From Deltaproteobacteria bacterium (GTDB lineage: Bacteria; Desulfobacterota; Deferrimicrobia; Deferrimicrobiales; Deferrimicrobiaceae): a stretch of DNA of 64,000 nt. The stretch spans positions 15,523-79,522 of the forward strand of contig JACRCO010000053.1 in NCBI GenBank assembly GCA_016218975.1. Direction: 5' to 3'. This document shows, one piece after another, positions 22,991 through 27,706 of the stretch. The notes under the pieces are model-generated. The model was not told where the DNA came from and searched no databases. It saw nothing but the letters and a program-made list of their open reading frames with translations. The first letter of the stretch is position 1. Every line of letters begins with the position of its first letter. The position numbers were made by a program, and so were the translations under genes.

Positions 22991-24379
22991 TTATTCCAAC
23001 CCGAACTTCTTGATCTGGTACCTGAGGGAGTCGTACGTGATGCCGAGGAGCTTCGCGGCCTGCGTCTTGTTGCCGCCGGATTTCCCCAGCGCCTGGAGGA
23101 TAAGGTTCCTTTCGACGTCGTCGAGCGACAGCCCCGCTTCAGGGAGGGAAATTCCCTTGCCTGCCGCCGCGCCCACTACGCCTTTCCCGAAGAGGATCTC
23201 TTTCGGCAGGTGATCGGGGAGGACCGTCTCGCAGCTTTCCAGGACGACGATCCTTTCGACGACGTTCCTCAGTTCCCTCACGTTGCCCGGCCAGCCGTAG
23301 GACAAAAGGAGCTTCCCGGCCGCGGGTGATATGTCCTTTATGGGGGTACGGTTGTATTTCGCCGCGAAAAATTCGAGGAAATGCCTTGTCAATGGAACGA
23401 TGTCGTCCTGCCGCTCCCGCAGCGGAGGTACATGAAAAGCGAAGACGTTCAGGCGATAATACAGGTCGATCCGGAATTCTCCCTTCTCCACCGATTCCTC
23501 GAGGTTCCGGTTCGTGGTGGCGAACACGGTCGCGTCGATGGCGATGTCGTGTTTCCCACCCACGCGCCGCACCTTTCTTTCTTCCAGCACCCGAAGCAGC
23601 TTGGCCTGCAGGCTCGGCTTCATGTCCCCGATTTCGTCGAGAAGGATGGAACCTTGTGAGGCCAGCTCGAAGACGCCTTTCTTCTCGGTCTTGGCGTCGG
23701 TGAACGATCCCTTCTCGTGGCCGAAGAGCTCGCTCTCGATGAGGGACTCCGGAATCGCCGCGCAATTGACGCCCACGAAAGGCGCGTACCCGGAAGCGCT
23801 TTCGCCGCGCATCGTATTATGGATGAATCTCGCGAATATCTCCTTGCCAGTCCCGTTCTCTCCGGTGATCATCACGGACGGGACGCCCGCCTGGGCGAGT
23901 TTCTCCGCCTTTTCCTTCAGCTTCCGTATGACGCTCGAGCCGCCCACGATCTCCTTGTAGGCCAGGTCGGTGCTGATCTTCCTGAGGTATTCGACTTCCT
24001 GCTTGAGGTTCCCTTTCTCCATGATGGCGTTGACGACTATCTTGACCTCGTCCATGTCGAAGGGCTTGGTGAGGTAATCGACCGCGCCGATCTTCATCGC
24101 CTTCACCGCGCTTTCCGCGCTGTCGTCCGACGTCAGCATCACTACCTGGGTGCCGATCCCCCGGTCGACGATCTCCTTCAGTATCTCCATGCCGCTTATG
24201 CCGGGAAGCTTGAGGTCCAGCATCACGATATCCGGGGCGAACGGACGAATCCTGTCGAGGATGCCCTGGGGGTCGGTTTCCGCCTGCACTTCGTACCCAT
24301 CGGCCTTCAACGCCCTCGCCAGCATGGAGACTATCAGGTCGTCGTCGTCCAGCAGGAATACCCGCCCCTTCGTCTTCAT
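22991..24379 (-). CDS. Sigma-54-dependent response regulator (NtrC family)
   Basis: Receiver (VFLLDDDDLIV...VMLDLKLPG), AAA+ (GENGTGKE, ESELFGHEKGSFTDA, RVGG), C-terminal HTH (AAKLLGITYDSLRYQIKKFGLE). Confidence 0.9.
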   Translation of the reverse strand: MKTKGRVFLLDDDDLIVSMLARALKADGYEVQAETDPQGILDRIRPFAPDIVMLDLKLPGISGMEILKEIVDRGIGTQVVMLTSDDSAESAVKAMKIGAVDYLTKPFDMDEVKIVVNAIMEKGNLKQEVEYLRKISTDLAYKEIVGGSSVIRKLKEKAEKLAQAGVPSVMITGENGTGKEIFARFIHNTMRGESASGYAPFVGVNCAAIPESLIESELFGHEKGSFTDAKTEKKGVFELASQGSILLDEIGDMKPSLQAKLLRVLEERKVRRVGGKHDIAIDATVFATTNRNLEESVEKGEFRIDLYYRLNVFAFHVPPLRERQDDIVPLTRHFLEFFAAKYNRTPIKDISPAAGKLLLSYGWPGNVRELRNVVERIVVLESCETVLPDHLPKEILFGKGVVGAAAGKGISLPEAGLSLDDVERNLILQALGKSGGNKTQAAKLLGITYDSLRYQIKKFGLE

Positions 24380-25830
24380 GTGGCCGTCTCCGCAGCAACG
24401 GCGGCGACGGGAAGCAGGATCCGGAACACCGTGCCGCCTCCCGGGTTGTCTGCGGCAGAAATTTCTCCGCCGTGCTGTTCGATCAGCTGTTTGGAAATGG
24501 CCAGTCCCAATCCAGTGCCCTTGGGCTTTGTCGTGAAGAACGGCTGGAAGATCTTTTCGATGTTTTCCCTCGGGATCCCCTTGCCGGTGTCGGCGAATTC
24601 GATCCGAAGGAAATCCGTTTCCTTTTCATGGGAGGTGCGCACCGAGAGCGTTCCCCCGTTGGGCATTGCATCCACGGCGTTCAGGACGAGGTTCAGGAAG
24701 ATCTGCTGGAGCTGCATGGGATCCGCCATCGTTTCCGGGAGCGGCTGAAGGTCCTTCTCTATACGGACGGCGTTCGGGCGGTCCGGCGCAGACGGGCGGC
24801 TTTTCATGTAAAAGGCAAGGACGGTGTTGACGAGGCTGTTTACGTTCAGATCCGCAAGCTGCGGCTTGGCCGGCTTGGCGAAGTTAAGGAAGTTCCTCAT
24901 CAGGGATTCCACGCGCACGACCTCCTGCGCGACTTTGCGGATGACTTCCCGGTCTTCCGCAGACATGCTCGTTTCCTCGGACAGAACGTGCATGGCCACC
25001 TTGATGCCCGCGAGCGGGTTCTTGATCTCGTGGGCAAGGCCCGCCGCCAGCTCGCCGACGATCACCATCTGCTCGGTCCGCTGCATCTTCAACATCTGTT
25101 CCTTGAGCGATGCCGCCATCTCGTTGAACGATGCAGCCAGCTCTCCGAATTCGTCCTTCAGGGCCTCGACCCGGTGATCCAGGTTTCCGGCTTTCAGCTT
25201 TCTCGTCGAATCGAGCAGCACGTTGACCGGGTTCGTCAGCCCGGACAGGAATATGTAGCCGAGGAACGCCGACATCAACGGGCCGATCCCGACGAGGAAA
25301 TACAGCATATACTTCGTCCGCGCGATGCGGATCATCGCCCTTTGCGTATTCTCCGCAAGCTTCGAGCTCGTGATCGCGATCACGTCCCGGACCTTGCCGA
25401 TCAGGTCCTCTCCGATCTGGAAGGCCGCATCCTCCTCCGCCAGGATCCTTGCGGTGTTCGCGCGAAGCGTCAGCACGCGGCTCAATGCGTCCTTGTAGGT
25501 CTCCGTCTGCTTTTTCAGGTCCTGGAGCCTCTCGGTCGCCTGCTGGTTGTGATGGCAGTCGAAACAGGTATCTACGATCCTTCCCATGCTGACGACGTTC
25601 TGGACGACGGTGTCGAAAGTACGCTTATGCCGCGTGTCCTTGAGGGTCAGGTCCGTTTGGACCCTTTTTACCTGCAGCAGGTAGTGCTCCCTCAGGATTT
25701 CCACCTGGTGGAGCGTTATCAGCCTGTCGAGCTCAGTCGTCGCGGACTGGATGATGTAGATGATGTAGATGCCGCAGAGGAGAAAAAACAGCGTATAGAT
25801 GCCAAGGCCGATGATTATCTTCTTCTTCAT
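24376..25830 (-). CDS. Sensor histidine kinase (TM, periplasmic domain with one CxxCH, TM, HAMP, HisKA, HATPase)
   Basis: TM1 IIIGLGIYTLFFLLCGIYII. Periplasmic loop contains VDTCFDCHHN (about 25552..25566). TM2, HAMP, H-box LAAGLAHEIKNPL, G-boxes DTGKGI / GTGLGLAIS. Overlaps the regulator gene by 4 nt. Confidence 0.85.
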   Translation of the reverse strand: MKKKIIIGLGIYTLFFLLCGIYIIYIIQSATTELDRLITLHQVEILREHYLLQVKRVQTDLTLKDTRHKRTFDTVVQNVVSMGRIVDTCFDCHHNQQATERLQDLKKQTETYKDALSRVLTLRANTARILAEEDAAFQIGEDLIGKVRDVIAITSSKLAENTQRAMIRIARTKYMLYFLVGIGPLMSAFLGYIFLSGLTNPVNVLLDSTRKLKAGNLDHRVEALKDEFGELAASFNEMAASLKEQMLKMQRTEQMVIVGELAAGLAHEIKNPLAGIKVAMHVLSEETSMSAEDREVIRKVAQEVVRVESLMRNFLNFAKPAKPQLADLNVNSLVNTVLAFYMKSRPSAPDRPNAVRIEKDLQPLPETMADPMQLQQIFLNLVLNAVDAMPNGGTLSVRTSHEKETDFLRIEFADTGKGIPRENIEKIFQPFFTTKPKGTGLGLAISKQLIEQHGGEISAADNPGGGTVFRILLPVAAVAAETAT

Positions 25831-25839
25831 AAATGAACG

Positions 25840-26748: not shown

Positions 26749-26797
26749 CTTTTAGAATACTACCATATATTTCGATTACTTCGCCATAAATCAAGCG

Positions 26798-27706
26798 TCA
26801 GTCATTTATGTAGTCGTAGGTGGCGAGGCTCAGGCCGGCTTCTTTTGCATACCTTGCCACGGACTCGTAATCCTTGTTCGTGGTCTCGACGAATCTCCGC
26901 GCACCGAACTGCTCCAGCACCGACTTTCCCCTGGCGTCGAGGTGCATGTTCAGGAGCGCATCCTTCAAACCGGTTCGGAAGGAATCTTCGATATCCTTCC
27001 GGAGCGCCAGGGAGTTTTCCGGCATGTCGGGGGATGTTTCCAGGATCGACAACTCTCTTTTTATCCGCGGGTCGGATACCGCGACCCGGTTGAACACCGT
27101 GTTCTTCGACGCGCCTATGTCGGCCTTCCTGTTGAGCACATCGAAGATCGCGTCCTCGTGCGTTCCCGTAAAATAACCCTCCTTGAGATATTTTCTCCAA
27201 TCGATTCCCTTCTCATGGAAATATTTCAGGGGGAAAAGATAACCGGCGGTCGTCGCCTTGTCCACGAAAGCGAACCGCTTCCCTTTCATGCCGTCGATCG
27301 TCCTGATCCCGCTGTCCTTCCTTACGAAAATCATCCCGTGGTAGGTGGATGTGTTGTCGTTGTATTCCGGACGCGCAAGGACTTCCACCCCAAGCTTCGC
27401 GTGGGCAAGCGCGTACGTGAAACTCCCGAAAAATGCGCCGTCCAGCCCCGACATCCTGAAATTGTCGATGATGTTCCCGTACCTCGGGAGAATTTTAAGA
27501 GATATATTCATCCCGGTTTTCGCGGAGAGATACGCGGCCACGGGTTCGTATCTCTCCAACTGCTTGAATATGTTCTGCTCCGGTATCAGCCCGATAAGGA
27601 CGGTCTTCCGGTTGACCGCCGGGGATCTTGAAGGAGGATTGTCCTGGCTGCACCCTGCCGCAATAACAACTCCCAGGATAACGATAAAAGCCGATCTCCG
27701 GAACAT
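26798..27706 (-). CDS. PhnD/SsuA-like periplasmic substrate-binding lipoprotein, tandem paralog
   Basis: Same motifs as the 25840..26748 gene (LIGLIPEQNIFKQLERYEP...). Visibly similar at the DNA level. Confidence 0.8.
   Translation of the reverse strand: MFRRSAFIVILGVVIAAGCSQDNPPSRSPAVNRKTVLIGLIPEQNIFKQLERYEPVAAYLSAKTGMNISLKILPRYGNIIDNFRMSGLDGAFFGSFTYALAHAKLGVEVLARPEYNDNTSTYHGMIFVRKDSGIRTIDGMKGKRFAFVDKATTAGYLFPLKYFHEKGIDWRKYLKEGYFTGTHEDAIFDVLNRKADIGASKNTVFNRVAVSDPRIKRELSILETSPDMPENSLALRKDIEDSFRTGLKDALLNMHLDARGKSVLEQFGARRFVETTNKDYESVARYAKEAGLSLATYDYIND

Follow-up and report, generated by a model that had tools for sequence, protein, structure and literature searches.

Why would genes for PhnD-like binding proteins stand beside genes for sensor kinases, and what would such pairs control? 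The question is raised by a 64-kb stretch of DNA from a Deltaproteobacteria bacterium of the family Deferrimicrobiaceae (contig JACRCO010000053.1, positions 15,523 to 79,522; hereafter the window), in which an earlier note, made from the letters alone, had described one gene order three times: a PhnD-like protein, a kinase, and a sigma-54 activator. Our analysis indicates that these modules are probably three-component receptors, in which a PhnD-fold protein, a kinase, and a sigma-54 activator control neighboring genes for electron-export cytochromes.

From computed features, namely the architectures, the gene coupling, the absence of an importer, the pocket, the Cys/His motifs, and the promoters and palindromes, we infer a contact, a ligand, a haem, and an assignment of sites that would combine as follows. 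The periplasmic PhnD-fold protein would capture a small oxyanion-like ligand and would dock onto the periplasmic sensor domain of the adjacently encoded kinase; modules 1 and 2 use a four-helix bundle for this domain, module 3 an sCache domain. The kinase would in turn phosphorylate its own NtrC-type regulator, which is predicted to bind palindromes 100-150 bp upstream of sigma-54 promoters and would thereby switch on an operon with an OmcS homologue, a porin-cytochrome operon, and small genes for receiver (REC) or REC-PilZ proteins. A second, redox input is likely, through a CxxCHH motif in the kinases of modules 1 and 2 and a CX3CH motif in the binding protein of module 3. Little is known of how metal reducers decide to build their extracellular-electron-transfer machinery (OmcS-type cytochromes, porin-cytochrome conduits), and for uncultured groups, Deferrimicrobia among them, nothing is known. 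The modules supply concrete, testable receptors, promoters, and candidate binding sites for that decision, and their ligand-binding proteins could serve as biosensor parts once the ligands are known.

Two kinds of three-component module

Pfam scans bore out the repeated gene order: a PF12974 protein, a HAMP-containing kinase, and an NtrC-type sigma-54 activator form three modules, all on the minus strand, at 22991..27706, 45371..49194, and 54425..58182. Module 1 holds a tandem pair of PhnD-like genes that the earlier note did not mention, PhnD1A (26798..27706; E 1.4e-59) and PhnD1B (25840..26748; E 8.4e-59), whose products are 71% identical and carry lipoprotein signals ending in IAAGC and LLAGC, respectively. 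It continues with HK1 (24376..25830), in which a first transmembrane helix (TM1), a periplasmic four-helix bundle with CFDCHH at residues 89-94, and a second transmembrane helix (TM2) precede HAMP, HisKA, and HATPase domains, and with RR1 (22991..24379), a REC-Sigma54_activat (AAA+)-HTH_8 protein whose sigma-54 contact loop reads GSFTDA. Module 2 consists of PhnD2 (48217..49194), a PF12974 lipoprotein with a GTG start that overlaps the upstream OmcS-like cytochrome gene (49149..50516) by 46 nt; HK2 (46756..48216), an HK1 paralogue with CFTCHH at residues 89-94; and RR2 (45371..46759), with the loop GAFTDA. In module 3, PhnD3 (57247..58182) has a PF12974 domain, a Sec signal, and the C-terminal sequence GCGIRCH (CX3CH), HK3 (55793..about 57277; start uncertain, TTG probable) has the order sCache_3_2-HAMP-HisKA-HATPase, and RR3 (54425..55792) carries the canonical GAFTGA. 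All three regulators show the Pfam set REC, Sigma54_activat, and HTH_8 of bacterial enhancer-binding proteins of the NtrC/AtoC class, in agreement with the sigma-54-dependent output proposed earlier.

Modules 1 and 2 are paralogues (57% identity for the PhnD-like proteins, 55% for the kinases, and 55% for the regulators), and module 3 is a separate subfamily (26, 30, and 42%, respectively). The modules fall into two types. In type A, represented by modules 1 and 2, a PhnD-like lipoprotein is combined with a kinase with a CxxCHH four-helix bundle and with an activator, beyond which lies a convergent REC(-PilZ) gene. In type B, represented by module 3, the PhnD-like protein has CX3CH at its C-terminus, the kinase has an sCache sensor, and the activator has the GAFTGA loop. 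This division, the CxxCHH kinases, the CX3CH binding proteins, and the convergent sigma-54-driven REC(-PilZ) gene all go beyond the earlier note. Three such modules within 64 kb are not there by chance. The tandem duplication (25840..27706) occurs in module 1 only, and relatives are single-copy except L001, which is from the same organism. Module 3 is directly preceded by an O-methyltransferase gene (58359..59333, minus strand), and the same neighbor stands before PhnD-like genes in L041 (82% identity) and L026 (65% identity).

The pairing of binding protein and kinase is widely conserved. We scanned one genome per species and mapped the resulting 79 loci by BLAST against the window proteins; close relatives are named Candidatus Deferrimicrobium. 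Of the 56 type A loci scored, 50 have the kinase gene immediately downstream of the PhnD-like gene (three more are adjacent on the locus map and were lost in scoring through over-extended open reading frame calls), and the two genes are coupled in 15 of 20 type B loci, which gives ~65 loci overall from several phyla, with Deferrimicrobia, Nitrospirota, Acidobacteriota, and Desulfobacterota among the taxa. This coupling supports the reading of the earlier note. Of the 50 adjacent type A pairs, 27 have stop and start codons that overlap by 1 or 4 nt, and the two genes look translationally coupled. In 27 of 47 type A loci, the kinase gene is followed by one for a sigma-54 regulator, and a convergent REC-PilZ or REC gene is present in 23 loci (the window's two included), which are most of the regulator-bearing ones.

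Importer genes are missing from this arrangement. Pfam scans of 30 other likely window genes returned cytochromes with 6 to 42 CXXCH motifs, NHL/YNCE/PD40 propellers, an MtrB/PioB porin, lipoproteins, and a peptidyl-prolyl isomerase (PPIase), and no ABC permease or ATPase among them. A tblastn search for PhnC and PhnE, a check suggested in the earlier note and run with queries from genuine phnDCE loci, gave no match in the window, so that the note's statement that permease and ATPase genes are absent holds for these 64 kb. Nor was a PhnE-type permease found in any kinase-linked locus (each up to 20 kb); PhnE-like permeases and phnD-phnC-phnE operons appeared only in L077 and L080-L082, which contain the remotest members of the family (23-30% identity).

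Among known systems, the earlier note had chosen TorT-TorS and LuxP-LuxQ as its models. The idea of an accessory partner is supported, and in both models a free periplasmic binding protein is the co-sensor of a membrane kinase with respiratory or other genes under its control; as precedents, however, they are not the closest. To our knowledge, the outputs of TorT-TorS and LuxP-LuxQ are not sigma-54 activators. TorT and LuxP belong to another binding-protein family of independent origin (PMC5908839). The closer precedent is AioX-AioS-AioR, together with ArrXSR, with which the modules share the PF12974 fold. In AioXSR, ArxXSR, and ArrXSR, a PF12974-fold protein, a membrane kinase, and a regulator (for Aio and Arx, a sigma-54 activator of the AtoC/NtrC type) are co-transcribed, and systems of the AioXSR type act on the respiratory operon next to them by way of an upstream site and an RpoN promoter (PMC5908839, PMC8050422). 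The window modules have the same X-S-R gene order without a transporter, the AioS sensor is sCache-like, as in HK3, and type B relatives are found at arrA loci. They differ in that the pocket Cys106 of AioX/ArrX is replaced by Gly or Ser, in the haem-motif four-helix-bundle kinase of type A and the extra C-terminal CX3CH of type B, and in their targets, which in the window are multihaem cytochromes and a porin, with no molybdoenzyme.

Other systems resemble the modules in part. The tetrathionate and thiosulfate sensors TtrS and ThsS detect a respiratory oxyanion through a PhnD-like periplasmic domain (PMC5408782), but that domain is fused into the kinase, whereas it is a separate protein in the window. 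XylFII-LytS and QseG-QseE-QseF use partner proteins of other families and kinases without a haem motif. The AioX structure paper regarded AioX orthologues as the sole signaling members of their family, and the modules widen PhnD-fold signaling well beyond arsenic sensors. We found no description of the module system in Geobacter, Deferrimicrobia, or other extracellular-electron-transfer contexts in the open-access literature, and the type A kinase is a new type relative to the literature searched.

Promoters, palindromes, and candidate target genes

The earlier note had also pointed to enhancer-like palindromes near cytochrome genes. These are real, are accompanied by -24/-12 promoters, and are kept between genomes. 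The clearest case lies downstream of module 3, where two palindromes TGTTTCC-N4-GGAAACA, 30 bp apart (54347..54394), stand just past the RR3 stop codon and form a candidate RR3 enhancer. At 105-150 bp beyond them, a sigma-54 promoter CGGCATGCCGATTGCT (54226..54241, minus strand) precedes the decahaem cytochrome gene (53211..54116), which is the first gene of a probable target operon (49149..54116, minus strand) that, by Pfam and haem-motif counts, continues with the MtrB/PioB porin (50698..about 53200) and the 6-haem OmcS-like cytochrome (49149..50516). Exact copies of GTTTCC-N4-GGAAAC number 2 against about 0.008 expected, and the GTTTC-N6-GAAAC pair is kept, together with the promoter and a TCTAAC..TTAA block, in five otherwise diverged intergenic regions. 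A related GTT[TA]C-N6-GTAAC pair with a promoter stands before arrA in Desulfocapsaceae. In the Deferrimicrobia-like loci L041, L064, L070, and L072, the type B triad is again followed by the window's decahaem cytochrome and MtrB/PioB porin. The TCTAAC..(G)TTAA block (54260..54300, minus strand), found between RR3 palindromes and promoter in the five loci, may be a bending site of the integration host factor (IHF) type.

For module 1, the convergent neighbor of RR1 is a REC-PilZ gene (22292..22975, plus strand; Pfam). A sigma-54-type -24/-12 element AGGCATATAAATTGCT (22264..22279, plus strand) ends 12 nt before its ATG at 22292, and a palindrome GGGGAAATCCCC (22132..22143) lies ~125 bp upstream of this promoter as a candidate RR1 site; GGGGAAAT(T)CCCC-like motifs occur at the matching place in L002, L009, L012, L006, L010, and L013. 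A further sigma-54 promoter, TGGCATATGGCTTGCT (20604..20619, minus strand), precedes a propeller gene (19600..20589) and an OmcS homologue (18127..19395), both on the minus strand. Its TGGCA-N7-TTGCT pattern before this operon is invariant in five loci and has a conserved GGTGAAAtCCCC block upstream; in the window, the conserved block GGTGAAAACCCC (20715..20726, minus strand) lies ~95-120 bp upstream of the promoter at 20619 and is a candidate enhancer site.

For module 2, a single-domain receiver gene, REC2 (44974..45366, plus strand), converges with RR2 and is preceded by a sigma-54-type element CGGCACGCCGATTGCG (44946..44961, plus strand) that is identical in L041. A perfect 13+13 palindrome, CGAAATGAACAAA-N3-TTTGTTCATTTCG (44787..44815), lies between REC2 and the divergent NHL and OmcS-like genes, and its core ATGAACA..TGTTCAT and the two flanking, divergent promoter-like elements are kept in L041. 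Next to it, the window sequence GTATCGAAACGGAAAC (44821..44836; reverse complement GTTTCCGTTTCGATAC) is kept in L041 and differs by one mismatch from the RR3-type site found in L072, which hints at cross-talk of module 3 with the module 2 region.

Among the type A loci with a convergent REC(-PilZ) gene, 21 of 23 have a -24/-12 element before it (background, 0.046 per region), and the element usually ends 11-13 nt before the ATG. The window's spacing (22264..22294 and 44946..44976) recurs in L002, L006, L009, L010, L013, L037, and L040, and the propeller-gene promoter (20587..20619) ends 14-17 nt before the start. With such short distances, the REC(-PilZ) and propeller transcripts are therefore predicted to be leaderless or nearly so, with a spacing that is conserved across phyla.

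Among the 45 type A loci that span 9 kb or more, 31 include a gene for a cytochrome with at least four haem motifs. The OmcS homologue at 18127..19395 (422 aa, 6 CXXCH) matches OmcS over its full length (PDB 6ef8, E 3.8e-108). In several Acidobacteriota and Desulfobacterota type A loci, as in the window, a giant cytochrome with 20-42 haem motifs is encoded directly upstream. The window's copy, on the minus strand (27748..30897), is a 1049-aa protein with 42 CXXCH motifs whose gene ends 41 nt before PhnD1A, and cytochromes with 20-42 haems occupy the equivalent position in L036-L040 and L058.

In G. sulfurreducens, the kinase and sigma-54 regulator GSU2507/GSU2506 are encoded beside an NHL-propeller gene and omcS, and deletion of GSU2507 alters cytochrome gene expression (PMC11077965, PMC10599522). 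The order of the window's propeller gene and the downstream OmcS homologue mirrors GSU2505-omcS. We considered the omcS locus as a carrier of an equivalent module and rejected it, there being no PhnD-like gene: the GSU2507 sensor is a Cache_1 domain, and GSU2508 is a TPR protein (PMC3495685, PMC10599522).

Binding pockets and sensor domains

The binding proteins match PF12974 over the whole model (positions 1-242 of 242) at E 1e-59 to 1e-64, and their best PDB matches are PtxB, PhnD, ArrX, and AioX (for PhnD1B, PtxB at 1.5e-30 and PhnD at 1.4e-20). The AlphaFold2 (AF2) model of PhnD3 (pLDDT 89) superposes on PtxB and ArrX with TM-scores of 0.83-0.88 (0.87-0.88 for ArrX, at 26% sequence identity). 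Both types fall short of the NCBIfam PhnD equivalog TIGR03431 (cut-off 261 bits), with 180 bits for PhnD1B and 129 bits for PhnD3, and PhnD1B passes a broad NCBIfam subfamily model only.

We mapped published pocket residues (PMC5700983, PMC5908839) onto 60 type A sequences. The oxyanion cradle is kept, with Tyr75 in 60/60, Tyr121 in 47/60, Ala-Thr-Thr at 150-152, and His183 in 56/60; these correspond to the phosphonate-oxygen ligands Tyr47, Tyr93, Ser127-Thr128-Ser129, and His157 of PhnD, the first Ser being Ala in type A. The residues that set known specificities are replaced. Thr203 and Asn231 stand in place of the PhnD amine ligands Glu177 and Asp205, which bind 2-aminoethylphosphonate; the capping tyrosine of PtxB (Te_PtxB Tyr208, P-H...pi contact) is Asn in 50 of the 60 sequences; and, by spacing from the first cradle Tyr, Gly or Ser occupies the position of AioX Cys106, with no Cys anywhere in mature PhnD1A, PhnD1B, or PhnD2. 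Because the Tyr-Tyr-(Ser/Ala)-Thr-Thr-His cradle is kept, the ligand is probably an oxyanion-type compound, and because the amine ligands, the capping Tyr, and Cys106 are all replaced, it cannot be read from the known specificities.

In type B, Y82, Y128, and H188 are invariant and S158/T159 nearly so, in arr-linked and cytochrome-linked members alike. The pocket Cys of ArrX aligns with Gly100, which is Gly across the whole type B family. Of 120 homologues, 117 have the C-terminal sequence G-C-G-x-x-C-H (CX3CH; window 57247..57270), in many cases with ..CH as the very last residues. Its reading as a CXXCH motif was rejected on the spacing. The tail could be a haem site, an As(III) or other metal site, or a disulfide; in the AF2 model of PhnD3, it is placed with low confidence (pLDDT 63-73).

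The type A kinases carry a sensor domain of ~145 residues between TM1 and TM2 that has no Pfam match. An exhaustive profile search gave 374 cluster representatives at E <= 0.001. All 53 locus kinases have CxxCHH starting at residue 89, 138 of 140 sensor-domain representatives have CxxCH, and 121 of 137 have a His 48 residues upstream of it. AF2 models the domain as a four-helix bundle (pLDDT 77), with CxxCHH at the turn between helices 2 and 3. Covalent haem c is expected on this motif and, because by helix register it is level with the conserved His41, the model suggests bis-His ligation. In having CXXCH between two transmembrane helices, the domain resembles the periplasmic c-type haem sensors of Geobacter, where GSU0582 and GSU0935 carry CXXCH in the periplasmic sensor domain of a signaling protein (PMC3831638). 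Those are PAS-like chemoreceptors, whereas the window has a four-helix-bundle kinase, without the PAS-like fold, that is paired with a binding protein. The modules define a family of haem-motif four-helix-bundle kinases. Its distant relatives include a GGDEF-EAL protein and a LytTR system without a PhnD neighbor; therefore, the binding protein is not intrinsic to the sensor domain, and the haem domain appears to be a self-standing sensor to which PhnD was added in one large clade.

A more specific proposal, which we offer tentatively, is that type A is an undescribed two-input sensor of uncultured metal reducers, in which a PhnD-fold chemical cue and periplasmic redox state, read by the haem kinase, would together gate sigma-54 transcription of the OmcS-type filament and giant multihaem cytochromes. 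Module 3 would then belong to an ArrX-like arsenic-sensor lineage whose pocket Cys was swapped for the C-terminal CX3CH and which was re-wired to a porin-cytochrome conduit.

Somewhat less likely still is that module 3, with its CX3CH tail, is a plain arsenic sensor of the ArrX/ArxX type and its porin-cytochrome operon an arsenic-responsive respiratory or detoxification conduit, rather than one for general metal reduction. The neighborhoods of its relatives give this alternative its weight: type B relatives (33-48% identity) are encoded directly upstream of ArrA homologues (PDB 6cz7, E = 0 and 1.8e-300) in Desulfocapsaceae, a Desulfuromonadales metagenome-assembled genome (MAG), and another MAG, with adjacent arr genes in L060, L066, L068, L069, L071, L073, L076, L088, and L089, and two of the arr-linked loci (47-48% identity) lie inside ars islands. 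The lineage therefore stands functionally beside the ArrX, ArxX, and AioX sensors. The cradle shared by arr-linked and cytochrome-linked members points the same way, and, as general chemistry, a Cys pair is a plausible As(III) ligand. However, the Cys106 that defines AioX and ArrX is Gly in the whole type B family, the window contains no aio, arx, arr, or ars genes, and the Deferrimicrobia branch is consistently joined to the decahaem cytochrome (cyt339) and MtrB/PioB. The Desulfocapsaceae type B protein is of unusual build, with about 570-600 aa, two PF12974 domains, and a CX3CH end (L060, L066, L068, L069, L071, L073-L076); kinase and regulator follow it, and then an ArrA homologue in 7 of 9 loci. 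One of these, L066, is from the cultured Desulfopila aestuarii DSM 18488.

We consider it quite unlikely that the PhnD-like proteins are ligand-independent partners of their kinases, in the style of QseG-QseE, with periplasmic redox sensed through the kinase haem as the signal. The QseG-QseE complex is a structural neighbor of the type A sensor domain, PhnD1A, PhnD1B, and PhnD2 have lipoprotein signals, the haem bundle works without PhnD in distant relatives, and the CxxCHH is invariant, all of which would fit. Yet the pocket residues are conserved family-wide, which a pure scaffold would not need, the homologous ArrX and AioX bind ligands (PMC5908839), and a lipobox was detected by a crude test in only 22 of 57 family members.

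Possible importer genes elsewhere and observations on the other side

The weakest alternative, which we regard as improbable, is that the PhnD-like proteins are ordinary binding proteins of an ABC importer encoded elsewhere, merely co-regulated by a two-component system or serving transport and signaling at once, like BctC and the chitin-binding protein: their top scores against the transport proteins PtxB and PhnD, the kept cradle, their public annotation as ABC transporter substrate-binding proteins, and the coverage of 64 kb of the genome speak for it, but neither the window nor the kinase-linked loci encode them with phnC and phnE, the kinase gene is a conserved neighbor whose start codon often overlaps the preceding stop codon, the PhnD equivalog cut-off is missed, the PtxB capping Tyr and PhnD Glu177/Asp205 are replaced, and relatives stand at arr loci, like the signaling-only ArrX.

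Returning to the three-component receptor that we favor, several observations weigh against it. An importer may be encoded elsewhere in the genome, as the search covered the 64-kb window alone. In six Deferrimicrobium-like loci (L002, L004, L009, L012, L019, and L061, at about 6.1-9.9 kb in locus coordinates), two ABC_membrane+ABC_tran genes, with fused products of about 560-620 aa, lie ~60 nt upstream of the PhnD-like gene; the pair is of exporter type, absent from the window, and not kept in other loci. ABC genes near some relatives were rejected as cognate importers because they are of exporter type (PF00664) or are paired with a binding protein of their own (L066). Distant members of the haem-bundle family work without a PhnD neighbor, and an adjacent sigma-54 regulator is absent in 20 of the 47 type A loci. 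The contact loops of RR1 and RR2 are GSFTDA and GAFTDA, not GAFTGA, with the Gly-to-Asp variant kept in 29 of 29 type A regulators scored. RR1 and RR2 have near-identical recognition helices and unlike palindromes nearby, and no common site for the two was assignable from the palindromes near both. The first RR3 palindrome is also the best-scoring terminator-like hairpin of its region. Finally, sigma-54-like matches across the window are at chance (19 against 18.8 expected), and window-wide counts of GTTTCC-N4-GGAAAC with up to two mismatches and of GGTGAAATCCCC are not above chance. Because these counts are at chance, the significance of the promoters and palindromes rests on their position and their conservation between genomes only.

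Beyond the OmcS homologue described above, the window encodes four more 6-haem proteins of about 420-470 aa, at 20818..22086, 40712..42112, 42139..43440, and 49149..50516. The one at 42139..43440, the sole one of the four that was compared with OmcS, gave a weak match (E 2.4e-10). At the edge of the cytochrome island, a plus-strand gene (1339..6423) encodes a 1694-aa protein with beta-helix, MBG, Big, and PKD domains, which is probably a surface protein.

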